Source of the DNA: Candidatus Zixiibacteriota bacterium
GTDB lineage: Bacteria; Zixibacteria; MSB-5A5; GN15; FEB-12
NCBI GenBank assembly: GCA_022571985.1
Contig: JACZWU010000004.1
Span: forward strand, 64,319-128,318
DNA length: 64,000 bases
Direction of reading: 5' to 3'
The notes beneath the pieces are model-generated. The model did not search any database. It saw nothing but the letters and a program-made list of their open reading frames with translations, and was not told the DNA's origin. Shown in pieces: positions 47,675 through 61,419 of this stretch (the first letter of the stretch is position 1; each line of letters begins with the position of its first letter). The translations under genes were made by a program, and so were the position numbers.

Positions 47675-49252
47675 TTGTCAACAGTTAATAAAAAAGAGAG
47701 TTCTCTGGCCAAAACTGCCGGTTCCGTATCGGGGGCAACAGCTATATCCCGGGTGCTGGGGCTGGTCCGGGAACAGGTAATGGCTTTCTATTTCGGGGCG
47801 GGTATTGCCACAGACGCTTTTGTGGTGGCTTTCAGGATTCCCAACCTGCTCAGAGATATGTTTGCCGAGGGGGCCTTATCTTCGGCTTTTGTGCCTGTTT
47901 TTAAGCAAAAACTAGTGAAAGAGTCGGAAACTGAGGCCAGAAGCCTGGCAAATATTGTGGCAACTTTGATACTGCTTTTGGTTGGGCTAATTGTGCTGCT
48001 GGGGATAGTAGCGGCTCCGGCAATAGTATATATCTCGGCCAACGGATTTACATCGGATCCCTTAAAATTTGATCTTACAGTCAATCTAACCAGAATTATG
48101 ATGGTTTATCTGCTGCTTGTCTCTTTGTCTTCGCTGACGATGGGGATGTTGAACTCCTACGGAAAATTCGCCATTCCGGCCATCTCTCCGGCTCTTTTCA
48201 ATCTTGGTACAGTCCTGACTGTTCTGGTCTTTCACCGGTTTTTTGAGCAGCCTATTTTTGCACTCGCCATAGGTGTGGTTGTCGGAGGTGTGGCCCAGCT
48301 GGCAATTCAACTTCCGGCGCTTTTTAAAACCGGATACCGGTTTTATCCCAGCCTTAACTTTTTGGACGAAGGCATAAAAAGGATATCCAGGCTTTTTGTG
48401 CCCATGGTAATCGGGCTCTCGGCCGGAAGAGTCAATATTTTGGTCAGCACTCTGCTGGCATCGTTTTTAGCTGAAGGGGCCTTGTCTTACCTGAATTACT
48501 CTTTTCGATTAATGCATTTCCCTTTGGGAGTGTTTGCCGTTGCTCTGGGAACAGTTACCCTGCCAAAGGTTTCTGAACTAGTCGCCAAAAAAGATTTTGA
48601 GAACTTAAACAAGACTTTTCAGCAGGCGATCGGACTAAACTTTTTCATCGTGATACCGTCGGCAGTAGTGCTGGCTTTGATTGCGCCGATGATAATCAAA
48701 TTGATTTATCAATGGGGGGCGTTTGACGAGATTGATACTCTTAAAGTATCGCTGGCATTATTGCACTATTCCTACGGTTTGATAGGATTTGCGGTTGTAA
48801 GAGTTGTAGCTCCTTTCTATTACGCTTTTGGTGATTCCCGCCTGCCCATGCGAGTTTCTATTGTAACAGTTGTAGTCAACTTGCTCTTGTATTATCCCCT
48901 GATTCAGGTGCTGGATTTTGCCGGTCTGGCAGCGGCGACATCGCTGGCTGGACTGCTCAACGCAACTTTGTTACTCGTCTTTTTATCAACCAAGCCGATC
49001 AAAATTGACTGGGGAAAAATTCTACTGAATCTTTTCAGAGTGACCCTGGCGGCAATATTGGCCTTTTATCTGGCCAAGATTACGCACTTCAGCTTTTCAA
49101 TCGAATTAGAAGTCTTAAACAGAGCTGCCGAGCTAACTTCAATTCTTTGTATCGGGGGCGTTGCATATTTTGTTTTCTGCCTTATATTTCAGGTCTCAGA
49201 AGCCGTTAAAATCGGCAAGTGGATCCTGAAAATTATTTTCCGTAAGCAGTAG
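47675..49252 (+). CDS. murJ: Lipid II flippase
   Basis: SRVLGLVRE, DAFVVAFRIPNLLRDMFAEGALSSAFVP, RLMHFPLGVF. Confidence 0.96.
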   Translation: MSTVNKKESSLAKTAGSVSGATAISRVLGLVREQVMAFYFGAGIATDAFVVAFRIPNLLRDMFAEGALSSAFVPVFKQKLVKESETEARSLANIVATLILLLVGLIVLLGIVAAPAIVYISANGFTSDPLKFDLTVNLTRIMMVYLLLVSLSSLTMGMLNSYGKFAIPAISPALFNLGTVLTVLVFHRFFEQPIFALAIGVVVGGVAQLAIQLPALFKTGYRFYPSLNFLDEGIKRISRLFVPMVIGLSAGRVNILVSTLLASFLAEGALSYLNYSFRLMHFPLGVFAVALGTVTLPKVSELVAKKDFENLNKTFQQAIGLNFFIVIPSAVVLALIAPMIIKLIYQWGAFDEIDTLKVSLALLHYSYGLIGFAVVRVVAPFYYAFGDSRLPMRVSIVTVVVNLLLYYPLIQVLDFAGLAAATSLAGLLNATLLLVFLSTKPIKIDWGKILLNLFRVTLAAILAFYLAKITHFSFSIELEVLNRAAELTSILCIGGVAYFVFCLIFQVSEAVKIGKWILKIIFRKQ

Positions 49253-51552
49253 TGCTAAAAAAATACCCTGGTCTTTTTTTTCTGATTCCGGTAGTGGCCG
49301 GAATTCTGTTCACAGACTTTGTCCGTCCTGCGGGCTGGCTCTTGCTGCTGCTTTGTCTGATTTCGTTTGTTGGCGGACTGGTTCTGTTTAAAAAAGAATC
49401 AGCACGCTTTTCGATTATCTTATTTGCTCTTTGCCTCTTTTTTTTCAGCGGTTTTCATTACGGTCTTAAGACCTACAATTTTGGTTCAAATCATATTGCC
49501 AGATTTATTTCGGAGAAGCAGACCTATCAAATATATGGAGAAGTAGCTGACTGGCCGGAGCTTAAGCATAACAGGACCGAAATTACAATTGCCATTGACT
49601 CGCTTGGAAACGGTACAATTTTTCCGGTAAAAGGCGGCATCCTCCTGAAACTATCAAACACAACTACCGCATTACAGCGGGGGGATAAAGTAGAGTTCTG
49701 GGGAACTATATATCCTGTGAAATCTCAGCATGGTCCGGGTGGATTTGACTACAGCAGATACTTGAGGCACAAAGGCATCCATGGCATTGTCTATTTGCCG
49801 ACTCTCTTAAACGTTCGAGTGGGTAAGCCGGGAGCAAGAGGTATTATTGCTTATGTTGATTTACTGCGTGAGGAAATTTCAGAAAGCCTGTCACGAAATC
49901 TTTCGAAAGTTGCCGCCTCGCTCTCGGCCGGTTTTTTGATTGGTGAGACCAGAGAAATTCCGCCTGACGTCTACAGCTGGTTCAGAGATTCGGGAACACT
50001 GCATCTTCTGGCTGTTTCAGGTTCGAATGTGGCTCTGGTGATTTTCTTTTTGATAATAGTTCTTCGTCCTTTAGCTCTGCCCAGAAAGAGACGGGCTGCG
50101 GTCTTAATGGTTTGTGTTGTGCTCTTTGCACTGCTGTCTTATGGGGAACCGTCGGTGGTGCGGGCTTCATTGATGGCTATTTTAATTTTACTGGCAAATG
50201 TTTTTGAGCGCCGCTACAACTTAAATCAGATAATTGCTTCTGCCGCCATGATAATACTTCTGGCGGCGCCGACTCAATTGTTCAGCGTTGGCTTTCAACT
50301 TTCATTTGTGACTGCCTGGGGATTGATATTTGTAACACCCAGAGCGGCCAAATTTTTTGAAGCAGTTAATCATAAAGGCTGGTATCGCTGGCTGCTGCTG
50401 CCGTTTATGATTTCGCTGATTGCTCAGCTATTCTCAATGCCTCTGATCGCACTCTATTTCGGAAAAGTGCCGGCAATTTCTGTGATAGCAAATCTCGTAA
50501 TTATTCCGCTCGTTTCTATCGCAGTCGTAGGTGTGCTGCTACTTCTCCTGCTGGATTTAATACTGCCGATCATGGGTCTGTTTTTCGGTTCGCTTCTCGA
50601 TTCTTTTATGCAATTAGTGCTTTACTTTCTAAGTCTGTTTGGAGAAAAGCAAAGCATTATTATCAATACCGGTGATATTTCGGTGCTGGCCGTAGTTTTA
50701 TTCTATGGTCTGTTGGTACTGGCTGTTTTCTCCTTTAACAGCAAATTGCTTCGGCGGGCCACAGTTTTTGCAACTGCAATAGTCCTGAGTATAGCCCTTC
50801 TTAGCAACTTACTTTCTGCTTCGGTCCGCTCTAATGACTTTTGTACAGTCGATATTTTTAACATACCCGGTGGCACCGCTATTTTGATTTATCAGAATCA
50901 GAGCCAGACGCCAGACCTGATAATCAGCGGCCTGACCAGGAAACCGTACCCAATAGATGAACGAATTTTCAGCTCGGCCTTTGATGATTTAGGGGTGGAG
51001 GGACTCGGCCAGGTTTTTGTGATGTCATCGGAGTATGGTGCTATCGATGATATCTATAGACTCTGTCTCAGCTACCGGGCCAAATCTGTCATGGTAGATG
51101 CCAGGTTAGAAAAGAGCTTTTCGGATATAAGACGGACGCTTTTTGTAAATTACCGCACAGTCAAAATTGAGACATTTCCGGCAGAAAATTCTAAGAAATC
51201 CTTCCCGGGCTATTATCCCTCGAAAAATCTGATTGAGCTTGAACTGAATAATTCATCGATATTGATAGCAAATGAGAATTTTCTGTCAGGTGATAACGAA
51301 GTCTTCTTAGCAAAGCCGTCTCTGGTCATTTATTGCGGCAGAAGTAAGATAGCCCGCTCAGAAATTGAAGAGATTATCGAAAGTCAAAGCAACTTAAAGC
51401 AACTGGTCTGTTCAAGAATTGAGCAAAAGGGCGCTGTTTCTTTACCTGCTGAAAAATACAAGAAAATAGTTACGGATATTGGGCAAATCGGAGGCTGTCG
51501 GATCAAGCTTAAGAACCGAACCGACAGTACTTTCCAAGTCTCTCAGTTTTGA
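49252..51552 (+). CDS. comEC: ComEC/Rec2 family DNA uptake channel
   Basis: N-terminal TMs, OB-like domain with PGGFDYSRYL, core GTLHLLAVSGSNV, PSVVRASLMA, VGFQLSF. Confidence 0.9.
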   Translation: MLKKYPGLFFLIPVVAGILFTDFVRPAGWLLLLLCLISFVGGLVLFKKESARFSIILFALCLFFFSGFHYGLKTYNFGSNHIARFISEKQTYQIYGEVADWPELKHNRTEITIAIDSLGNGTIFPVKGGILLKLSNTTTALQRGDKVEFWGTIYPVKSQHGPGGFDYSRYLRHKGIHGIVYLPTLLNVRVGKPGARGIIAYVDLLREEISESLSRNLSKVAASLSAGFLIGETREIPPDVYSWFRDSGTLHLLAVSGSNVALVIFFLIIVLRPLALPRKRRAAVLMVCVVLFALLSYGEPSVVRASLMAILILLANVFERRYNLNQIIASAAMIILLAAPTQLFSVGFQLSFVTAWGLIFVTPRAAKFFEAVNHKGWYRWLLLPFMISLIAQLFSMPLIALYFGKVPAISVIANLVIIPLVSIAVVGVLLLLLLDLILPIMGLFFGSLLDSFMQLVLYFLSLFGEKQSIIINTGDISVLAVVLFYGLLVLAVFSFNSKLLRRATVFATAIVLSIALLSNLLSASVRSNDFCTVDIFNIPGGTAILIYQNQSQTPDLIISGLTRKPYPIDERIFSSAFDDLGVEGLGQVFVMSSEYGAIDDIYRLCLSYRAKSVMVDARLEKSFSDIRRTLFVNYRTVKIETFPAENSKKSFPGYYPSKNLIELELNNSSILIANENFLSGDNEVFLAKPSLVIYCGRSKIARSEIEEIIESQSNLKQLVCSRIEQKGAVSLPAEKYKKIVTDIGQIGGCRIKLKNRTDSTFQVSQF

Positions 51553-51655: not shown

Positions 51656-52861
51656 ATGAGTTTGTCAGGGAATTTAAAAACAGTCTCATTCTCGGACATC
51701 CTGCAGTTATTGTCAACGGGCAAGAAGACAGGAGTTCTGGAAGTAAATACCAGCGCCAGGCAAAAGGAAGTAGCCTTTAAGGGTGGCAACATAATTTATG
51801 CCTCATCACTGAATACTACCGAAGATTTGCTGGGAAATATGCTGCTGCGTAAAGGGAAACTTTCCAAAGATCAGCTGGAGCGCGCTATAACGCTGCACAA
51901 GCAGACCGGCAGACAGCTGGGTACCACACTTGTGGATATGAATCTTTTTGAAAAAGATGAAATCGCTGAGTGTCTGAAATTTCAAATTGAAGAAATAGTC
52001 TATAATTTGTTTTCCTGGCAGGAAGGAAACTTCGTTTTTCACGAAGGCACCAGTCCCAAAAACGCACCTTTCTTAGTAGACCTTACCACCATGAGTATCG
52101 TCATGGAAGGTACCCGCCGTATTGATGAATGGCTGGAAATTCAGAAAGTGCTGCCGCCGGACGAAATGATGCTGTCTGTAGCTGCTTCACCAAAAACAAA
52201 TAGTGATGAAGTCAGACTGACTATGGAAGAATTTCGGGTGCTGTCCATGATAAACGGCGAAAGAACTTTGCCGGAAATGATACAATGTTCACCTTTTGGG
52301 GAGTTTGTAACCTGTCGTGCAGTTTACAAGTTGATATTAGGGAATTTGATAGAAGTCACCGGTAAACGTGAAGAAAGTTCTGAAGAAAAACAGGATGAAG
52401 AAGAAGCGGTTCTGTCTCTAATCTTTTATCTGTTCAGTAACGCTTTTTACAGGATTCGTACGACAGTGGAAGATTTGCTGGGAGAAAACAACACCAGGTT
52501 TTCAAGCTTTGCTTCTCAGTATCGCTCAGGAATTTTGAGTTATTTCCCGGGAGTAGATCCCGGCTCGGAATTGATGCCCTCGCAGGAAAAATTTCTTAGC
52601 GCCGTCAGATCGATTCCTGCACATATCCGGGTGCATGTATTGCTTGGCAGTTTAACCAGCATGCTTACCGAGCAGCTGGAATATGTATTCATGATTTTGG
52701 GCGAAGGTCCTTTCCGGAGCACGCTCAACGGAGTAAAAAGAGAAATATCCGAGCCGCTGGCAAAGAAGCGAGAGTTAGTCAAAAAATATGGAATAGAAAA
52801 CGATTACTATAAGTCCTTAAAAAGGGCCGAAAGAGTAGTTCATATGGTACGAGGTGATTAA
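51656..52861 (+). CDS. DUF4388 (PATAN-like) domain protein with MshEN-like motif
   Basis: SLSGNLKTVSFSDILQLLSTGKKTGVL...IIYASS...LLGNMLL; MEGTRRIDEW. Confidence 0.85.
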   Translation: MSLSGNLKTVSFSDILQLLSTGKKTGVLEVNTSARQKEVAFKGGNIIYASSLNTTEDLLGNMLLRKGKLSKDQLERAITLHKQTGRQLGTTLVDMNLFEKDEIAECLKFQIEEIVYNLFSWQEGNFVFHEGTSPKNAPFLVDLTTMSIVMEGTRRIDEWLEIQKVLPPDEMMLSVAASPKTNSDEVRLTMEEFRVLSMINGERTLPEMIQCSPFGEFVTCRAVYKLILGNLIEVTGKREESSEEKQDEEEAVLSLIFYLFSNAFYRIRTTVEDLLGENNTRFSSFASQYRSGILSYFPGVDPGSELMPSQEKFLSAVRSIPAHIRVHVLLGSLTSMLTEQLEYVFMILGEGPFRSTLNGVKREISEPLAKKRELVKKYGIENDYYKSLKRAERVVHMVRGD

Positions 52862-53225
52862 GATGAAAAAGAGTTTATTTATTGCAATTTTAATTAGTGC
52901 AGCGATGGGCAGTGATGTCCAGGCCGCCAATCTGGCTGTTATAGCCAGTCCGCCGACGATGTTTAATCTGTTCGTATTGATAGTTGCCGGAGCCTGTTTG
53001 TTTGGTTCTTTTCAGGTAATGGGTCAGGTCAAAGGCGGCTATCTGAGCAGGAGCTGGCAGATGTTTTTCCTTGGTTTCGTGCTTCTGGCCATAAGCCAGC
53101 TGGCAAGTATCGCTTCGGCAATGGAGTTTTTCAGTCTGCCGGAGCTGTTTACTCCACTAATGCTGCTATTGATGTCGGGACTTTTTGCGTTTGGAGTTTT
53201 TAGCGCTAGAAAAACGCTAAGCTGA
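52854..53225 (+). CDS. Small hypothetical membrane protein (signal peptide plus about 3 TM)
   Basis: Hydrophobic segments; overlaps the stop of the upstream gene; the start may be ATG 52863. Confidence 0.7.
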   Translation: MIKMKKSLFIAILISAAMGSDVQAANLAVIASPPTMFNLFVLIVAGACLFGSFQVMGQVKGGYLSRSWQMFFLGFVLLAISQLASIASAMEFFSLPELFTPLMLLLMSGLFAFGVFSARKTLS

Positions 53226-53339
53226 GAATATTTTTGTTAGCTGGTTTAAATTATTTTTGGAAAAAAAGTAGGCGCAAGGCAGAATTTTTAATTGCGCAAG
53301 AACTTATGGCAAAACAAGTTACAATGAGCGTTTGTTTTT

Positions 53340-54224
53340 ATGGCGACTGTATCAGAATTAGATGATAGAATAGAGAAGTGTCAGAGAATTTTGGACTCTG
53401 ACCCTAACTCACAGATTTTTGCTGCCTTGGCTGAAGCATATCGCAAAAAGGGAGACCTGGATCTGGCTTTTAAAGTGTGCAAAAACGGATTGAAAGTGCA
53501 TGACAACTACGGCTCTGCTCATGTGGTTATGTCTAAAATAAATCTCGACCGTGGTCAATATGACTGGGCGGAGATTGAAGCCAAACGTGCAGCCGATCTT
53601 GACGGTCGTACCCGTTCAGTTGAACTGTTGCTGTCAGAAATCTACATCTATAAAGGCGAATTTCCGCAGGCCATAAAGCTCTTGAAGGAACTCAGCAACC
53701 GTGACCCTGAAAATCCTCAGATTCAAAAACTGTTGGAGATTGCGCAGAAAATTCCGGAAGAACAAAATGCCTATTTGGACGAGACAATTATTACCGGAGG
53801 TTCATCTGGCAGCAGTCCAGTTTTACCATCTGAAGTTGATGAAACAGAAACTGAAACGAATAAGCCGTTAGAACTGCATGACATTCTTACCGAAGCCCTG
53901 ACAATAAAAGGACTAAAGGGCGCTATGCTTGTCAGCCAGGACGGTCTGGTAGCTGATTATGAATGGAAAAGTTCCCTGGAAGTAAATGACTGCGGGGCTG
54001 TTTTATCGGAAATATGGAAAATGCTTAGCAGCGAACTTGTAAATAACTCTTTTGGCAACGTGCAAAACGTACTTATTGAAGCAGCAGAATCAACTTTTTA
54101 TATAAATCAGAACTCAAAAGGCATTTTCATTTTTGTGGCAGGTAAAAAAGCTAATTTGGGCAACGTTCGCATGAGAATTGACGGACTGATGTCTAATTAT
54201 GCCAAAACAGCAGGTGCTATATGA
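53340..54224 (+). CDS. TPR plus roadblock/LC7 domain protein
   Basis: TPR-like N-terminus (FAALAEAYRKKGDLDLAFKVCKNGL); C-terminal KGAMLVSQDGLV...ANLGNVRMRI. Confidence 0.8.
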   Translation: MATVSELDDRIEKCQRILDSDPNSQIFAALAEAYRKKGDLDLAFKVCKNGLKVHDNYGSAHVVMSKINLDRGQYDWAEIEAKRAADLDGRTRSVELLLSEIYIYKGEFPQAIKLLKELSNRDPENPQIQKLLEIAQKIPEEQNAYLDETIITGGSSGSSPVLPSEVDETETETNKPLELHDILTEALTIKGLKGAMLVSQDGLVADYEWKSSLEVNDCGAVLSEIWKMLSSELVNNSFGNVQNVLIEAAESTFYINQNSKGIFIFVAGKKANLGNVRMRIDGLMSNYAKTAGAI

Positions 54225-55204
54225 ACTTTTCAGGTGAAGCTACAAAACGGCTATTGTTGTATTCGTTAATTCTATTAGTCGTGCCGTTAATATTGTTTCC
54301 GGAAAGACTCGGAACATATCTTCAGGACTATTCTTCGACTAATATCGTCCTGGAACTTCTTTTCTATCTGCTGCTGACTTTCGTGTTATACAGACAGGGA
54401 AACGCCATGCAAATGGTAGCAATCGTCTTTATCGGACTGGGCTACAGATTGCTTATAAGTTCGGTATTTTCAGTGCTGATTTCTGCCTTTTATGATATCA
54501 GCAGCAGCGTAGCCTTTTCTCTGGGGATGTACGGATACTTACCGAGTTTGCTTTTCCAGGTTTTTGCCACCCAGTTTATAATCAAAAGCACTATGGATGA
54601 AATATTTTTCAGTCGATCCCGTATTCGTCGCCCACAGCAGTCAGATACTACCGCCTTTGATTCAGTTGAGACCGGCACCTCGACCTTTGTAGTTACTAAA
54701 GAAAAAAACGCTACCAGACCCGATTCTCCTCCACCCAGGCCGGCTCAGAACCAACCAGGTTTTGAAGACCGATCTGCAGGAGAGTCAACTGTTGTTGGCG
54801 GAGAAGCTCAGGGCTTCGATAAGGCCACCAGATATATTGGTGAACATGGTTCTGTCAAGCTGGCTGCAGTAGTTGACCATGAAGGTCTGCTGTTATCAAA
54901 CTTTACCCGCGGCGGTATAATTGCAGAAGATGTAGCTCCCTTTGCTTTGCTTATAAAAGCAAACGGAGCCGGGAGCATGAACTTTCTCAACTACGGATGT
55001 CCGGAAAGAGTAGAATTTCAGCTAAGTAATGACAGGGTGGTCCTTTGCTATGAAGAGACATATTGTCTTATGGTGATAGCAGAAAGACACAGTGATGATT
55101 TATTAAATATTCGCATAAATCAAGCGATGGAAATGGTCAAGAAATATATGTCCGAGAGGTATGGCAAAATGCTGCACCCGGCAATGGAGAAATCATATGC
55201 ATGA
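54221..55204 (+). CDS. Multi-TM membrane protein with C-terminal roadblock/LC7-like domain
   Basis: About 4 N-terminal hydrophobic helices, P/Q/S-rich linker, then KLAAVVDHEGLLLS...LMVIAE...LLNIRINQA. Confidence 0.7.
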   Translation: MNFSGEATKRLLLYSLILLVVPLILFPERLGTYLQDYSSTNIVLELLFYLLLTFVLYRQGNAMQMVAIVFIGLGYRLLISSVFSVLISAFYDISSSVAFSLGMYGYLPSLLFQVFATQFIIKSTMDEIFFSRSRIRRPQQSDTTAFDSVETGTSTFVVTKEKNATRPDSPPPRPAQNQPGFEDRSAGESTVVGGEAQGFDKATRYIGEHGSVKLAAVVDHEGLLLSNFTRGGIIAEDVAPFALLIKANGAGSMNFLNYGCPERVEFQLSNDRVVLCYEETYCLMVIAERHSDDLLNIRINQAMEMVKKYMSERYGKMLHPAMEKSYA

Positions 55205-55538
55205 AATACTAAGTGAACTGAACAAAACAACCGGCATTACCGGCTCAATGGTGGTCGGCAATGATGGTATTGTTATTGCGGCCAATCTGCAGGAAAATGT
55301 GGAAGACGACACTATCGGAGCCCTGGCGGCATCGATAACCGCCAACATCCATAAATCGCTGGAGCGACTCCAGAGCAGCCCTTTGACACATGTTACCATA
55401 GAAGCTGATGACGCCAAGCTGTTTTTCAGCGACGCCGGACTTGGCATTCTGGTCGTAACTGCAGAGAAAGAAGTGAATATTGGTCTAATTCGACTCGAAA
55501 TCAAGCACGCCATATCACGATTGAAAACGTCAAGTTAG
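55197..55538 (+). CDS. Stand-alone roadblock/LC7 protein (MglB/MglC-like)
   Basis: GITGSMVVGNDGIVIA...LVVTAEKEVNIGLIRLEI; start placed at ATG 55197. Confidence 0.88.
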   Translation: MHEILSELNKTTGITGSMVVGNDGIVIAANLQENVEDDTIGALAASITANIHKSLERLQSSPLTHVTIEADDAKLFFSDAGLGILVVTAEKEVNIGLIRLEIKHAISRLKTSS

Positions 55539-55564
55539 AAACTAAGAATAGTAGGAAGAAGTAA

Positions 55565-56683
55565 ATGGTATCAATAAACTACTCAGCGCGAGAGGTCTGC
55601 TGCAAAATAGTCTATTATGGTCCGGGCTTATCGGGCAAGACTACCAACTTGCAATATGTCCACACCAAAGTGCCCAGCACGACACGCGGAGAACTTATAT
55701 CTCTGGCGACTGAAGCAGACCGGACTCTCTATTTTGATTTCCTGCCAATTAATATTGGTACAATCAATGGATTTCAGGCCAAGTTTCAGCTCTATACTGT
55801 CCCCGGGCAGGTCTACTACAATGCTACCCGTAAATTAGTTTTGCGGGGTGTAGACGGCGTTGTATTTGTAGCAGACAGTCAGCCTGACAAAATGGACGAA
55901 AATATTGAAGCTCTGGCAAACTTGATAGATAACCTCAAAGAATATGGGTACGACGTTAATGAGCTGCCACTGGTGATTCAATATAACAAACGTGACCTTC
56001 CCAATATAATGACAACCGAAGAGATGGATCAAAAGCTTAATACTTATAATTTCCCTACTTTTGAGGCTTCGGCTACTGTGGGAACAGGGGTTTTTGATAC
56101 GCTCAAACTGATTATCAAGCTTGTCCTGGAAAAAGCTAAGAATTCTCAGGGATCAAGCAAATCTTCGAAGCCAGCCGAAGAGGCACCTGCGTCACCTGCG
56201 TCACCAGAGCCAGCCGTACCTCAGGCACCTGCGGCACCAGAGCCGGCTGCACAAGTTGCAGTTCCACCTGCCGCGGAGCCAGGCCCGGACGAGCCTTTGG
56301 CCGATCCTGCGGTTCAACCCTTAGGTAACGATCCCTATGCAGCGCCGCCTGCAGCTTCTCAGGTTCAGGGACAGCCAACAGCCGCAGTTTCAACAGCTGA
56401 TATACCGGTAACATCGGCGACTGACGACAGAATTCCCGCGTATCGTCCTTATCCTGGGGCAAAGCAGGCAGATCCTTCAGCAGGAGGCGATGCTGAAATG
56501 GATGAGAGGCCGTATCCCGGTATGAATCAAAGTGAGAAAACTCTCACAAATAATGACTCAGCCACAGACGAATCGGCCGCCATGGAAAATTCTGGTTCTA
56601 TTACTCCCAGGATGGCGCCTTCACTTAAGCGAAGAGAGCAAAAGAAGCGCAGCTTTTTCAAGAAATTGTTTGGAATAAAATAA
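55565..56683 (+). CDS. mglA: MglA-family small GTPase with long C-terminal extension
   Basis: INYSAREVCCKIVYYGPGLSGKTTN, DRTLYFDFLP, TVPGQ, NKRD, EASA; then about 180 aa P/A-rich tail. Confidence 0.92.
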   Translation: MVSINYSAREVCCKIVYYGPGLSGKTTNLQYVHTKVPSTTRGELISLATEADRTLYFDFLPINIGTINGFQAKFQLYTVPGQVYYNATRKLVLRGVDGVVFVADSQPDKMDENIEALANLIDNLKEYGYDVNELPLVIQYNKRDLPNIMTTEEMDQKLNTYNFPTFEASATVGTGVFDTLKLIIKLVLEKAKNSQGSSKSSKPAEEAPASPASPEPAVPQAPAAPEPAAQVAVPPAAEPGPDEPLADPAVQPLGNDPYAAPPAASQVQGQPTAAVSTADIPVTSATDDRIPAYRPYPGAKQADPSAGGDAEMDERPYPGMNQSEKTLTNNDSATDESAAMENSGSITPRMAPSLKRREQKKRSFFKKLFGIK

Positions 56684-56699
56684 TATATAGGAGGCAGGA

Positions 56700-57191
56700 A
56701 TGTCTGATAGTAACCTGATAATTTACGAAGAAGAAATAAATCAAATTGAAGCTCTGATATCCAAGATGCTTAAAGGAGCAGAGGCAAAGTGCGCCCTGCT
56801 GGTCGATAAAGACGGTCACCTTATTACCCGTCTGGGGTTTACGCACTCTCTTGATACTACCGCACTGGCAGCGCTTCTGGCCGGTTCGTTTGCCTCGACA
56901 AAAGAGATAGCCAGACTGGTCGGTGAACCGGAGTTTTCGGTTCTGTTTCATCAAGGCAAGAAAGACCATATCCACATGTCTATAGTCGGAGATCGTTCTA
57001 TTTTAGTAGTTATTTTTGACGACCGTACAACAATTGGAATGGTCCGCCTTTATGCCAAAGAAACCGCCACTGGCTTGAGTAAGATTTTTGTGGAGATAAC
57101 AGAGAAGTCCGCCTCCGGTCGTAAGAGCGCCGTTGAAGGTGATTTTGTGGAGCGTGCTCAGGAAAAGCTGGACGACATTTTTCAGGACTAA
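56700..57191 (+). CDS. mglB: MglB-type roadblock GTPase-activating protein
   Basis: LIIYEEEINQI...LVDKDGHLI...DTTALAAL...EPEFSVLFHQG...IFDDRTTIGMVRL...DDIF, closely matching Myxococcus MglB as I recall it. Confidence 0.88.
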   Translation: MSDSNLIIYEEEINQIEALISKMLKGAEAKCALLVDKDGHLITRLGFTHSLDTTALAALLAGSFASTKEIARLVGEPEFSVLFHQGKKDHIHMSIVGDRSILVVIFDDRTTIGMVRLYAKETATGLSKIFVEITEKSASGRKSAVEGDFVERAQEKLDDIFQD

Positions 57192-57266
57192 GCACTAACG
57201 CCTAGACAAATAGCACGTAAACTTTTCAACCTGTAATTGGATAGGAGTTAACCACAGGCAATAGGT

Positions 57267-58967
57267 ATGGCTACAGAACTCAGCAACATACTCGTTAAGC
57301 ACGGCAAGATTTCTCAGGAGCAGGCCGACAAAGCGCTAAAGCTGGTCAAAAGCGATAGCGAGAAATTTGAAGTGGCCCTGGTAAAAATTGGCGCTGTTGA
57401 GTCAGAATATGACATAGCGCAGTTTATAGGAAAGCACCTGAAAATTGGTGCCCTTAAGCTTAGTGACATTGAGCTAAATCCTGATATTGTCAAGATGATT
57501 CCGCTTGATATCGCCCGCAAGTTCAAAGTCATAGCAATCTCAAAAATTGGCAAGAACCTTCTGGTCGCAATAGGTGACCCCAATAATGTTTACGTACTGG
57601 ATGCAATAAAATTTATAACAGGCTGCACTGTTCAGCCTGTCATTTCACCTGAAAACGCGATCGAAAAAGCTATCGAATTACAGTATGGAGATACGGGAGC
57701 GCTTTCTGACATTGTGGCCAGCCTTGACGCCGATGATAGTTTGGAAGTAGTCTCGAGTGAGTCGGCTCCTGATGAATCTGACCTGCTTTCTGCAATTCAG
57801 GACAAGCCGCTGGTAAAGCTGGTTGATTCAATAATTGCCGATGCTATTCGAATAGGAGCCTCTGATATTCACCTTGAAACTTATGAAAAGCGAATTCGTG
57901 TGCGCTACCGCGTAGACGGTGATTTACGAGAACTACCGCCATTGCCTTTTAAGTACAGGGCAGCGATTATTTCACGTATTAAAATTATGGCTGAGCTTGA
58001 TATATCCGAACGTCGTCTGCCTCAGGACGGACGTGTAAAAGTCAAAATTTCCGGCAGAACAGTAGACCTGCGGGTGTCGGTGCTGCCTACGATTTTCGGC
58101 GAGAAGGTAGTTATGCGAATCCTGGATCCGATGGCTCTAATGGTAGATATGACCAAGCTCGGATTTAGAACCGAAGATCTCGACAATTTCAGAAGAGCAA
58201 TTCACCTGCCCTATGGCATAATTTTGGTTACCGGACCGACTGGTTCCGGTAAAACTACGACTCTGTATTCGGCCTTAAAATCAATCAATACAGTAGACGT
58301 TAATATCATGACAGCCGAAGACCCGGTTGAGTTTAACTTTGATGGCATCAATCAGGTCGCTGTTAAAGCCGACATAGGTCTGACATTTGCAAATACCCTC
58401 AGGTCGTTTTTGCGACAGGATCCGGATATCATAATGCTCGGAGAAATTCGTGACGGCGAGACAGCAGAAATAGCCATTCGGGCAGCTCTTACCGGTCACC
58501 TTGTTTTTTCCACCTTGCATACTAATGATGCGCCGTCATCTATCAACCGTTTAATGGACATGGATGTGCCTTTTTATCTGGTAGCTTCGGCCACCAAATT
58601 AATACTGGCACAAAGGATGGTCCGAAAAGTCTGCCAAAATTGTAAGATGGAGATTAATCTGACCAAAGATCAAGTAGAAAGTCTCGGCGTACCGTCAGTC
58701 TGCCTGACCAATTTAAGAGCTTTCAAAGGAAAAGGCTGCGATGAGTGCAGTGATACCGGGCAGTCGGGCAGAACAGCTATATTTGAAATCATGCCCATAT
58801 CCCCGGCCATTGAAAAGCTGATTCTTGATAGAGGCACCGATGCTGATATTCAAAAGACTGCCCTGGATGAAGGCATGTACAGCCTGCGCATGTCTGCTAT
58901 TGAGAAGATGAAGCTGGGAATGGTCAGCATCGATGAGGTCTTTGCCACTACGGCGGCTGTAACATAA
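57267..58967 (+). CDS. pilB: Type IV pilus assembly ATPase
   Basis: ASDIHLE, RRLPQDGR, GPTGSGKTTTLY, LRQDPDIIMLGEIRD, STLHTND, CxxC...CxxC. Confidence 0.92.
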   Translation: MATELSNILVKHGKISQEQADKALKLVKSDSEKFEVALVKIGAVESEYDIAQFIGKHLKIGALKLSDIELNPDIVKMIPLDIARKFKVIAISKIGKNLLVAIGDPNNVYVLDAIKFITGCTVQPVISPENAIEKAIELQYGDTGALSDIVASLDADDSLEVVSSESAPDESDLLSAIQDKPLVKLVDSIIADAIRIGASDIHLETYEKRIRVRYRVDGDLRELPPLPFKYRAAIISRIKIMAELDISERRLPQDGRVKVKISGRTVDLRVSVLPTIFGEKVVMRILDPMALMVDMTKLGFRTEDLDNFRRAIHLPYGIILVTGPTGSGKTTTLYSALKSINTVDVNIMTAEDPVEFNFDGINQVAVKADIGLTFANTLRSFLRQDPDIIMLGEIRDGETAEIAIRAALTGHLVFSTLHTNDAPSSINRLMDMDVPFYLVASATKLILAQRMVRKVCQNCKMEINLTKDQVESLGVPSVCLTNLRAFKGKGCDECSDTGQSGRTAIFEIMPISPAIEKLILDRGTDADIQKTALDEGMYSLRMSAIEKMKLGMVSIDEVFATTAAVT

Positions 58968-59097
58968 AAAATACCGCAAGTGTAGGGCATTGTCTCTCAG
59001 CAGCTTATAGCTCTGATTCTACAAATAAAACTTAAGAAACCTCCGCTTTTTACCGATAAATTATAGGTATCCGAAGAGTCTGATAAACCGCTTAAAT

Positions 59098-60195
59098 ATG
59101 GGGAAAACCATGGTAGGTCTGCGTGAACTGCTTGAAGAAATGTTCAAGATGGAAGCTTCTGATTTGCATATTACTGTCGGGGCTCCTCCGGTCGTCCGAG
59201 TTGATGGCAAGCTTCAGCCTCTGAATTATGATCCTTTGACCAGTGAAGATACCAAGAAGATAGCTTATACGATGCTCAACGAAAAACAGAAGCTCAAATT
59301 TGAGCAAAACTCCGAACTGGACTTTTCATTCGGAATTGAGCAGATGAGCAGGTTTCGGGCTAATATGTTTATGCAGCGAGGCAATGTCGCGGTGGTTCTG
59401 CGGCAGATTCCATATGAAGTAAAAACGTTTGAAGAGCTCGGATTGCCAAAAGTAATCGCGGAATTTGCAAATCTTCCCCGCGGCTTGGTACTCATTACCG
59501 GACCCACCGGTTCAGGAAAATCAACATCTTTGGCTTCTGTCATTGACAAAATTAACAGAGAAAGAGCCGTTCATATAATTACTATAGAAGACCCGATTGA
59601 ATACCTGCATCGCCATAAAAAATCTCTGGTCAACCAGCGGGAAGTATATTCTGACACAGCCTCATTCGCCACGGCCTTGAAATATGCTTTGCGCGAAGAC
59701 CCGGATGTAGTTCTGGTGGGTGAAATGAGAGACCTGGAAACAATCGAGTCGGCCTTATCAATTTCAGAGACGGGACACCTTGCCTTTGCTACCTTGCATA
59801 CAAACTCCGCTGCAGAATCGGTAAACAGAATAGTAGATTCTTTTCCCGCAAATCAGCAGGAGCAGGTACGGGTTACTCTGTCGTTCACTCTTCAGGCGGT
59901 AGTATCACAGACACTGATTCCCAAAATTGGCGGCGGACGCGTATTGGCAATGGAAATATTGGTAGTAACGCCTGCGATCCGGGCGCTGATACGTGATGAT
60001 AAGGTTCATCAGCTATATTCTATGATACAGGCCGGACAGAAATACGGCATGAAGACGATGAATCAGTCACTGGCAGAATTATATGAGGCTCATAAAATTA
60101 CCATAAACGATGCAATGGCTCATAGCAGTTCAACTCAGGAGTTGACGGAAATGCTCCAGAAAAGTAAAGTTCAAAGATCTCCTGCATTCAGTTAG
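59098..60195 (+). CDS. pilT: Type IV pilus retraction ATPase
   Basis: ASDLHIT, GPTGSGKST, TIEDPIE, QREV, LREDPD, AIRALIRD. Confidence 0.95.
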   Translation: MGKTMVGLRELLEEMFKMEASDLHITVGAPPVVRVDGKLQPLNYDPLTSEDTKKIAYTMLNEKQKLKFEQNSELDFSFGIEQMSRFRANMFMQRGNVAVVLRQIPYEVKTFEELGLPKVIAEFANLPRGLVLITGPTGSGKSTSLASVIDKINRERAVHIITIEDPIEYLHRHKKSLVNQREVYSDTASFATALKYALREDPDVVLVGEMRDLETIESALSISETGHLAFATLHTNSAAESVNRIVDSFPANQQEQVRVTLSFTLQAVVSQTLIPKIGGGRVLAMEILVVTPAIRALIRDDKVHQLYSMIQAGQKYGMKTMNQSLAELYEAHKITINDAMAHSSSTQELTEMLQKSKVQRSPAFS

Positions 60196-60222
60196 ATGAG
60201 CAGGTTGAAAGAGGCTAATTAA

Positions 60223-61419
60223 ATGGCAGTTTTTGAATACAAAGGAAAGACGTTAGCCGGAGCAGCAGTTCAGGGCTCGCTTAAGGCAAAAAGCAAAGAG
60301 GACCTTGAGCGCGTCTTAAGGCAGAATCGTATACTGGTTACCTCAATAACCAGAAAAGCTCCGGACATAAATATAAAATTCGGAACCGGCATAAGTCGCT
60401 TAGATATATCCCGGTTTACCCGCCAGTTTGCTACTATGATTGGTGCCGGCCTGCCCATGGTCCAGTGTCTTGAAATCATGGCGTCTCAGACTGATAGTAA
60501 AGAACTTGCTAAAGTTATCACACAGGTAAAAGAAGGAGTTCAGGGAGGTGCTACTCTGGCCGATGCCCTGGCGCGCCATCCCAAAGTTTTTGACCAGCTT
60601 TATTCGAATATGGTACAGGCAGGAGAGATCGGTGGTGCACTTGATGCCATTCTTATGCGTTTGGCGGCATATCGCGAAAAGTCTGACCAGCTGATTCGTA
60701 AAGTAAAAGGCGCCATGGTCTATCCGTCCGTTATCGTAGTAGTTGCCGCTGGTGTAACATTCGGTATGTTGACGTTTATCGTTCCTGTTTTTGCTAAGAT
60801 GTTTGGAGGATTAAACGCAGAACTGCCTATGCCTACTCAGTATGTTCTGGCAATTTCGCATTTTTTGCAAGACAACATTCTTTACCTGATAGTCGGTTCG
60901 ATAGGATCTGTTGTCGGTCTTTTGTGGTGGAAGAAAACTCCTACTGGTGCGCTTCTTTTTGATAAGTTCATGCTTATGACGCCAATATTTGGAAACCTGA
61001 TCAGAAAATCTGCGGTGGCAAGGTTTACTCGTACATTGGGAACCCTGCTGTCGTCCGGTGTGTCAATTATTGAAGCAATGGAGATTACTGCTAAAACCGC
61101 AGGTAACGTAGTTATCGCAAATGCGATTAACAAGGCCGTTCTGTCAATCGCCGAAGGTGATACGATTACCGGCCCGCTGAAAGAATCGGGTGTTTTCCCT
61201 CCAATGGTAACTCAGATGATTGCTGTAGGCGAAAAGACAGGTGGCTTAGATGACATGCTCAGCAAAATTGCAGATTTCTATGACGAAGAAGTAGATGAAG
61301 CTGTAACCGCCCTGACCTCTGTAATTGAGCCAATCATTATTGTATTTATGGGTATTGTCATTGGTGGTATTTTGATAGCCATGTATTTGCCAATGTTCGA
61401 CATAATTGGAAAAATCTAA
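60223..61419 (+). CDS. pilC: Type IV pilus platform protein (T2SSF family)
   Basis: FTRQFATMIGAGLP, GEIGGALD, KVKGAMVYP, GEKTGGLDDML, AMYLPMF. Confidence 0.95.
   Translation: MAVFEYKGKTLAGAAVQGSLKAKSKEDLERVLRQNRILVTSITRKAPDINIKFGTGISRLDISRFTRQFATMIGAGLPMVQCLEIMASQTDSKELAKVITQVKEGVQGGATLADALARHPKVFDQLYSNMVQAGEIGGALDAILMRLAAYREKSDQLIRKVKGAMVYPSVIVVVAAGVTFGMLTFIVPVFAKMFGGLNAELPMPTQYVLAISHFLQDNILYLIVGSIGSVVGLLWWKKTPTGALLFDKFMLMTPIFGNLIRKSAVARFTRTLGTLLSSGVSIIEAMEITAKTAGNVVIANAINKAVLSIAEGDTITGPLKESGVFPPMVTQMIAVGEKTGGLDDMLSKIADFYDEEVDEAVTALTSVIEPIIIVFMGIVIGGILIAMYLPMFDIIGKI

Follow-up and report, generated by a model that had tools for sequence, protein, structure and literature searches.

A long MglA with a hypervariable tail and a predicted MinD-type C-terminal membrane anchor, encoded beside type IVa pilus genes in Zixibacteria

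The long mglA gene and its G domain

In a 64,000-nucleotide (nt) stretch of a Candidatus Zixiibacteriota genome (GenBank contig JACZWU010000004.1, positions 64,319 to 128,318; hereafter the window), a long mglA gene lies among genes for Roadblock/LC7 proteins and directly ahead of mglB and the type IVa pilus genes pilB, pilT and pilC (Table 1). In bacteria, MglA serves as the model of a Ras-like polarity switch. The protein encoded here joins a G domain to a tail of 179 amino acids (aa) that begins near nt 56141-56144. This tail falls into three parts: a hypervariable acidic linker rich in proline and alanine (P/A-rich), one conserved RP[YF]PG motif, and a conserved, strongly basic end of 24 aa. 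As the last residues resemble the membrane-targeting sequence (MTS) of MinD, an earlier reading of the DNA, made from the letters and a list of open reading frames (ORFs) without database searches (hereafter the original prediction), had proposed that the protein is a Ras-like GTPase which carries a hypervariable linker and a MinD-type membrane anchor of its own, and the sequence comparisons below support that proposal.

Table 1. Features of the mglA locus, with positions in the window, and loci elsewhere that carry the family-consensus C-terminal decapeptide
Feature	Position	Strand	Remarks
Long mglA gene	55565..56683	+	372 aa plus stop codon; listed ORF; homologues 327-402 aa; Shine-Dalgarno-like AGGAAG upstream
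Group-1 MglA G domain, aa 1-193	55565..56143	+	P-loop GPGLSGKT, Arg finger R53, TVPGQ with Q82, G4 NKRD
Hypervariable acidic P/A-rich linker, aa 194-348, predicted disordered	56144..56608	+
In-frame near-duplicated DNA units encoding AP(A/S)P..PEPA repeats	56184..56250	+	Slippage-prone; orthologue indels located here
Conserved short linear motif RPYPG, aa 294-298	56444..56458	+	Family consensus YRP[YF]PGS; 78/78 G-domain-selected ORFs
Second RPYPG, aa 315-319	56507..56521	+	Confined to closest relatives, not family-wide
Conserved basic C-terminal module, aa 349-372, RMAPSLKRREQKKRSFFKKLFGIK	56609..56680	+	Net charge +9; family range +6 to +11, median +8
MinD-type amphipathic membrane-targeting helix core (predicted), aa 362-372, RSFFKKLFGIK	56648..56680	+
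DUF4388 protein with MshEN-type motif for binding cyclic di-GMP (c-di-GMP)	51656..52861	+	PF14332 2.8e-33; NF053729 51 bits, cutoff 38; cluster head
Small 123-aa ORF without known family	52854-53225		Between the DUF4388 gene and the TPR plus Roadblock gene
Tetratricopeptide repeat (TPR) plus Roadblock protein	53340..54224	+	TPR_19 3.8e-9; Robl_LC7 1e-4, just under cutoff; position conserved
Multi-pass membrane protein with Roadblock-like C-terminal domain, 327 aa	54221..55204	+	Position conserved
Roadblock/LC7 protein, 125 aa	55161..55538	+	Directly upstream of mglA; PF03259 1.5e-13; position conserved
mglB, Roadblock/LC7, 163 aa, predicted GTPase-activating protein (GAP)	56700..57191	+	PF03259 1.7e-13; NF052242 MglB 2e-25, below cutoff
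pilB, pilT, pilC (type IVa pilus motor ATPases, platform protein)	57267..61419	+	Order conserved
Decapeptide carriers other than MglA and MinD	L016:3721-6111, L045:1345-3984, L091:297-2099, L055:2655-3617, L084:1696-2733, L078:3619-4821		In other genomes

The original prediction described the G domain as intact, with the Arg of DRT and the Gln of PGQ retained, and alignment to structures of known MglAs bears this out. Residues 1-193 align gap-free and end to end with Myxococcus xanthus MglA (5ymx, E 6.3e-81), and Thermus thermophilus MglA (3t12, E 9.4e-69) likewise aligns end to end with the same residues. The P-loop G19-P-G-L-S-G-K-T26 fits the G1 motif GxxxxGK[ST], and the G3 motif T78-V79-P80-G81-Q82 carries the catalytic Gln; both are invariant in an alignment of 69 sequences of the family, as are the Arg finger R53 and the G4 motif NKRD. 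D52-R53-T54 is aligned with the M. xanthus DRT, which provides the intrinsic Arg finger beside the G2 threonine. Since Group-1 MglAs are defined by an intrinsic Arg next to the G2 threonine and by the G3 motif TVPGQ (PMC4316618), the protein, judged by its catalytic motifs and by the coupling of its gene to mglB, is a genuine Group-1 MglA. Pfam detects Arf/Ras-type domains alone, confined to the first half of the protein, and the family profile searches gave no match to MinD, ParA or CbiA, the sole fold detected being Ras/Arf-like. Membership of the MinD/ParA ATPase family was ruled out, as there is no deviant Walker A ATPase fold.

Conservation and composition of the tail

Among the 120 best database homologues, the named ones of which are from Zixibacteria, 117 are 327-402 aa long and end in ...PxMAPS(L/I)(K/R)RR...KKRGFFKRLFGIK, with the last 24 aa and the first RPYPG both conserved; the remaining three are one protein truncated within the tail, one N-terminal fragment and one apparent fusion. 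In a test that is independent of the tail, species-representative genomes were scanned with the G domain alone, which yielded 78 complete ORFs. All 78 (311-399 aa) have RP[YF]PG and the same type of end, with 72 ends fitting the strict pattern and six being one-residue variants such as KKPGFFKRLFGMK. Presence of the tail in close orthologues was one point on which the original prediction had staked itself, and its proposed survey of MglA C-termini returns the motif and the end type in every ORF selected in this way, as well as MTS-like or transmembrane (TM) ends in other phyla (see below).

The alignment shows three regimes, namely a near-invariant G domain, the hypervariable linker of aa 194-348, and two conserved islands within the tail. 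In linker columns the frequency of the commonest residue is 0.2-0.3 and gaps are many, compared with 0.73-0.95 over the last 24 aa. Residues R294, P295, P297, G298, M350, P352, R362, F369 and G370 are invariant in the 69 sequences. Of the RPYPG motif, which the original prediction had found twice, both copies are present, and family-wide conservation holds only for the first. An origin of the second copy from a recent DNA duplication was rejected, because the codons differ (CGT CCT TAT CCT GGG vs AGG CCG TAT CCC GGT). Near-identical MglA tails occur in assemblies labelled Zixiibacteriota (L007) and Ignavibacteriaceae (L004), and there are single matches from bins labelled Acidoferrum and Deferrimicrobium (L037 and L059); the taxon labels or binning of these assembled genomes are unreliable and a poor guide to how widely the gene is distributed.

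The tail is 18% Ala, 16% Pro and 10% Ser, and its length and P/A repeats, including AEEAPASPASPEPAVPQAPAAPEPAAQ, are much as the original prediction had described them (roughly 180 aa). The net charge of the linker is -15 in this protein, and the family median is -6. GC content is 0.59-0.64 over the P/A stretch vs about 0.44 nearby. The near-duplicated DNA units that had been noticed there lie at 56193 and 56226 and are identical at 21/24 nt, and a perfect 9-nt tandem, CACCTGCGT, is repeated 2.4 times at 56184-56205. In one close relative (L130) the G domain is identical to that of the window at 193/193 positions, and the tail carries many substitutions and a 7-aa indel inside the P/A repeats; in other close relatives the indels fall in the same repeat stretch. 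We therefore regard the repeated DNA units as ordinary slippage-prone low-complexity sequence, and the linker as truly hypervariable, which is what the original prediction had called it.

Disorder-promoting residues amount to 72%, on the disordered side of the charge-hydropathy boundary. In an AlphaFold2 model made with the 69-sequence alignment (mean predicted local distance difference test score, pLDDT, 52.7), the linker is without secondary structure. As this alignment is too uniform, the G domain itself was poorly modelled, and the model gives weak support for an unstructured tail. The linker is thus predicted to be disordered from its composition and a low-confidence model; both agree with the disordered tail of the original prediction.

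The C-terminal module and the membrane-targeting sequence of MinD

The protein terminates in EQKKRSFFKKLFGIK, with the stop codon directly after it, and the MTS-like motif ends 2 residues ahead of the stop codon and so occupies the extreme C-terminus. In E. coli MinD, the MTS reads KGFLKRLFGG (PMC5471200), and the family consensus GFFKRLFG matches the E. coli GFLKRLFG at 7/8 positions. A genome collection was scanned for DNA encoding the family-consensus decapeptide KRGFFKRLFG, and at least 120 loci were found. Among those listed, 70 are long MglAs, with a median tail of 166 aa and RP[YF]PG in 68/70. The same decapeptide is, among the matches listed, the extreme C-terminus of genuine MinD proteins. 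The MinD of Caldimonas mangrovi (L063) has ...IDAEKRGFFKRLFGGGGR as its end and reaches 347.9 bits on TIGR01968, the MinD equivalog model (cutoff 212.9); further MinD loci have exact KRGFFKRLFG (L054 and L089) or the one-residue variant KSGFFKRLFG (L092 and L103). The family-consensus decapeptide is identical to the ends of Caldimonas and Campylobacterales MinD proteins, and the MinD-like end of the original prediction is confirmed at the level of sequence.

Other proteins that have exact KRGFFKRLFG as their C-terminus, or close to it, are class A penicillin-binding proteins (Bacteroidota, Acidobacteriota), a secretin, a radical-SAM/SPASM protein, a TPR protein and a DUF6882 protein (Table 1). 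In the penicillin-binding proteins and the secretin, this end should be periplasmic. The decapeptide therefore seems to be a portable module that is used on both sides of the inner membrane. Because its carriers are unrelated, may be cytoplasmic or periplasmic, and have the membrane as their common feature, lipid binding is favoured over a dedicated protein partner.

In a helical-wheel projection, F364, F365, L368, F369 and I371 lie at 180-340 degrees and R362, S363, K366, K367 and G370 at 0-140 degrees, a split into hydrophobic and polar faces, and the hydrophobic spacing i, i+1, i+4, i+5 is shared with MinD. The 11-mer has a hydrophobic moment of 0.495, a mean hydrophobicity of 0.44 and a charge of +4, and the corresponding values for the E. 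coli MinD MTS are 0.554, 0.40 and +3. Compared with that MTS, the end of the protein has an additional hydrophobic residue (I371) and much more positive charge. One copy of the E. coli MTS is reported to bind too weakly for a monomer to stay on the membrane, whereas a slightly longer MTS suffices (PMC8155659); hence the conserved polybasic stretch ahead of the helix probably matters.

Long MglAs with other C-terminal ends

When 1.84 billion representative proteins were searched exhaustively without a profile, 2402 hits had E <= 1e-30; this count of representatives overstates diversity, since variable tails split clusters. The best 150 of the 2402 are all long (255-717 aa), in part through a ranking bias, because the P/A tail of the query scores against other P/A tails. 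Among these 150, 46 C-termini are MTS-like (including KKKGFFGRLFGRG, KGLFGKLFGKK and KKSFFLFRLFGKK), 23 are TM helices and 81 are of other kinds, among them a group whose terminal domain is beta-rich. Applied to 784 other ORFs as a crude control, the MTS-like classifier fires at 2.2% and the TM classifier at 4.5%, which corresponds to an enrichment with an odds ratio of 20 (p = 5e-26) for MTS-like ends and 3.9 (p = 6.5e-6) for TM helices.

The type of anchor tracks the N-terminal signature, which was used as a clade proxy. Genome scans place the 'MASINY...PVNPK...GLFGKLFGKK' class in Fibrobacterota and Chitinivibrionales and the 'MVQINF...TM helix' class in Planctomycetota, and in the Fibrobacterota and Planctomycetota classes mglB is directly downstream and a DUF4388 gene is nearby. 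The Fibrobacterota MglAs (L121-L124) have P/Q-rich tails of 270-350 aa with an MTS-like end, and these tails hold conserved islands of their own, DLDLEIEKYQKEIE and P[LM]YFTSVNT...PVNPK. In the Planctomycetota MglAs (L127-L129) the tail is A/P-rich or K/E-rich, and a TM helix forms its end. As an amphipathic peptide is swapped for a TM helix in the same position and after the same kind of low-complexity linker, the function expected to be common to both is membrane attachment. A group of 21 long MglA-like representatives (P0149, P0168, P0176, P0184, P0188, P0204 and others) start with MVLVSYSGKE and are 400-600 aa long; their C-terminal region looks rich in beta-strands (...RLVLEIEV...), is no membrane anchor, and may be an uncharacterised domain fused to MglA.

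The gene cluster

The order of the ten genes (51656-61419 in the window) is identical in all 68 related loci examined. The mglB gene adjoins mglA in every locus long enough to show it, and the gaps flanking mglA in the window are 26 nt upstream and 16 nt to mglB downstream. Four Roadblock-domain proteins, MglB included, are encoded around one MglA, which is unusually many. Among them, the multi-pass membrane protein has three or four hydrophobic segments within aa 8-95 and no match in Pfam or NCBIfam, and its C-terminal domain aligns with the neighbouring 125-aa Roadblock protein (Robl125) with an hhalign probability of 81.6% (E 1e-5). A tethered MglA may thereby have a Roadblock partner that is itself embedded in the membrane. 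The pilus genes score 677 bits on TIGR02538 (pilB), 503 bits on TIGR01420 (pilT) and 498 bits on NF052606 (pilC, below cutoff). Since the gene order is conserved together with mglB and pilBTC, the module is best read as a switch of polarity or activity that is coupled to the motor of the type IVa pilus. PilB (57267-58967) has an MshEN domain, and the MshEN-type motif in both the DUF4388 protein and PilB suggests a c-di-GMP input to the module.

Discussion

We consider it likely that this MglA is tethered to the membrane by its own MinD-type C-terminal anchor through a disordered linker, in a constitutive or avidity-dependent manner, and that it controls type IVa pili; binding to the membrane, disorder, the part played by RPYPG and the connection with the pilus are all properties that we infer from sequences and gene order. 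The MglA switch, together with its cognate GAP MglB, would probably control the polarity or activity of the neighbouring type IVa pilus machine (PilB, PilT, PilC). The C-terminus would fold as a short amphipathic helix, with FFxxLFxI on one face, on the cytoplasmic face of the inner membrane, where the polybasic stretch ahead of the helix would add electrostatic attraction to anionic lipids. The acidic P/A-rich linker of ~155 aa would serve as a flexible leash between the G domain and the anchor, drifting fast through substitution and repeat slippage, and would allow the G domain to explore a layer above the membrane no more than some tens of nanometres thick. The most likely role of YRP[YF]PGS is to dock a partner, which may be a Roadblock or TPR protein of the cluster. 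Because the linker is long and apparently unstructured, tethering is probably constitutive or avidity-dependent and not nucleotide-gated.

Several observations weigh against a MinD-type anchor. The hydrophobic moment of the 11-mer is unremarkable, at the 92nd percentile of 11-mers from the ORFs of the window, and 23% of its own shuffles reach it. As the moment does not discriminate, the case is rested on the identity with MinD termini and on conservation. The invariant PxMAPS flank, which MinD lacks, could serve to bind a protein. In the AlphaFold model, which is poor overall, the helix spans just four residues (aa 365-368, pLDDT about 55-60). Finally, the model MglAs bind MglB as monomers (PMC4316618), the state in which a single MinD MTS is reported to be weak.

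These points bear most directly on an alternative in which the C-terminal peptide docks a fixed protein instead of lipid, as in FtsZ, with the membrane-embedded Roadblock protein, PilB, PilC or the TPR domain as the partner. With a variable linker and a conserved terminal peptide after its G domain, the protein does resemble FtsZ in layout, several candidate partners are encoded in the cluster, the PxMAPS flank is superfluous for a MinD-type helix, and a single MinD MTS is by itself weak. However, an identical decapeptide sits on unrelated cytoplasmic and periplasmic proteins of many phyla, including as the established membrane anchor of MinD, and the TM helix found at that place in Planctomycetota can stand in for a lipid anchor but not for a specific docking peptide; we therefore give protein docking a low probability. 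We rate about as low an alternative in which membrane binding is gated by nucleotide or oligomerisation, and in which MglA and MglB make up, together with the membrane, a reaction-diffusion system like that of Min or Cdc42; this corresponds to the membrane patterns that the original prediction had thought possible. Formally, a GTPase, a GAP and a weak monovalent MTS supply what MinD/MinE-type cycling requires, and the acidic linker (median -6) and basic end (median +8) could interact intramolecularly. Yet direct coupling between G domain and anchor is hard to picture across ~155 variable, unstructured residues, no sign of GTP-dependent dimerisation was seen and MglB binds the MglA monomer (PMC4316618), and the TM anchor of Planctomycetota cannot cycle on and off the membrane. 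A bolder form, in which anchored MglA, MglB and the membrane Roadblock protein make up a self-organising Min/Cdc42-like polarity system that places type IV pili without a RomR-type landmark, and in which a C-terminal 'hypervariable linker plus anchor' is an old and recurrent bacterial solution, is speculative and we think it unlikely.

The tail could instead be an entropic spacer or a condensate former, its polybasic end binding polyanions such as nucleic acid or polyphosphate and not the membrane. Its low-complexity P/A/Q-rich composition and segregated charge blocks would suit such a role, as would the extremely P/Q-rich tails of Fibrobacterota, but the conserved aromatic i, i+1, i+4, i+5 pattern, identical to that of MinD, and the TM-helix replacement in another phylum would be left unexplained, which makes this very improbable. 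That the tail is functionless, or an artefact of a frameshift, read-through or gene fusion, would be conceivable for a low-complexity, GC-rich region with slippage-prone repeats, and two database relatives (P0012 and P0044) look broken inside the tail or fused. The frame is nevertheless open, with the same 24-aa end in 78/78 independent genome assemblies and 117/120 best hits, and the tail has two invariant islands; no start codon or ribosome-binding site was seen for a separate small gene encoding the conserved end, and an antisense ORF at 56136-56462 was rejected as a by-product of the GC-rich P/A region without support. An artefact is effectively refuted by these conservation data, and we give it almost no credence. 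An MglA tethered by a MinD-type anchor thus remains the reading that we prefer.

Among known systems, the Group-1 MglAs (5ymx, 6h17, 3t12) have the G domain, Arg finger, TVPGQ, adjacent mglB and type IV pilus linkage in common with the protein described here. They differ in that the model proteins are single-domain and 195-203 aa long, whereas here 179 aa with linker, RP[YF]PG and basic amphipathic end are added, and in that their loci have one Roadblock protein, compared to four here. The MTS of MinD is likewise at the extreme C-terminus, with comparable amphipathicity and identity to the family-consensus decapeptide. MinD, however, is a ParA/MinD ATPase with few residues between its fold and the MTS, whereas the protein here is a Ras-like GTPase with a ~155-aa linker, a stronger polybasic stretch (+8 to +9) and PxMAPS ahead of the helix, and no evident dimerisation switch. 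SofG, an M. xanthus paralogue of MglA, is also an MglA-family protein with sequence outside the G domain, and it is involved in positioning PilB and PilT (PMC4316618). It is 239 aa long and not activated by MglB, and no membrane-targeting helix is reported for it in the cited literature on SofG; this comparison draws on its published description.

In the hypervariable regions of Ras, Rho and Rab, too, the G domain is followed by a segment that is variable and unstructured and, at the C-terminus, by a basic membrane element, as is predicted here, and the polybasic tail of K-Ras4B is the closest parallel, as a functional analogy and not as homology of the tails. In contrast to these prenylated proteins, the tail has no Cys and no CAAX, CC or CXC motif and ends in FGIK; its anchor would be an amphipathic helix, and its linker is about ten times longer. 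The design is also that of FtsZ and FtsA, an NTPase followed by a linker and a short C-terminal element that attaches to the membrane directly or via a partner. FtsZ is a globular GTPase with a disordered linker of variable length and a conserved C-terminal peptide, and FtsA has a C-terminal amphipathic helix. The folds are unrelated, and FtsZ polymerises, whereas nothing suggests so for MglA. Arf/Sar and Asgard Arf GTPases are small GTPases that bind the membrane through an amphipathic helix of their own (PMC11914678). They belong to a different clade of the GTPase superfamily, and their helix is N-terminal, packed on the G domain and released on GTP binding, whereas the one predicted here is C-terminal and far from the G domain.

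To our knowledge, all mechanistic work treats MglA as soluble and recruited to the cell poles by partner proteins. The parts of the present architecture (G domain, hypervariable linker, MinD-type end) are known and their layout is apparently undescribed: we found no paper with a description of a tailed or anchored MglA in the full-text literature, a coverage outside which most subscription journals fall. The reference census of prokaryotic small GTPases, which makes no mention of membrane anchors or tails on MglA, left out proteins of more than 240 aa, so that 449/488 MglA-clade sequences were small and 39 were set aside (PMC4316618). With 372 aa (family 311-402 aa), the protein falls outside the census range of 150-240 aa, which is a criterion of the survey and not a biochemical one. 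If whole phyla use a tail-tethered MglA, the switch would work in two dimensions, like eukaryotic Ras, Rho and Rab, which would change how GAP, guanine nucleotide exchange factor and effectors must meet MglA. Membrane anchoring via a variable C-terminal tail would then not be a eukaryotic invention, and length-filtered censuses of small GTPases would have missed a large part of the family. The finding also provides a compact peptide module and an unexplained conserved RP[YF]PG, which presumably marks a partner protein.

Other observations at the locus

With its listed start, the ORF of the 125-aa Roadblock protein shares 44 nt with the gene upstream. An in-frame ATG at 55197 (MHEILSEL...) is probably the true start, with which the overlap would be 8 nt. 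Upstream of the cluster, 47675-51552 encodes MurJ (TIGR01695, 441 bits) and a ComEC/Rec2-like protein; ComEC beside type IV pilus genes would fit natural competence.

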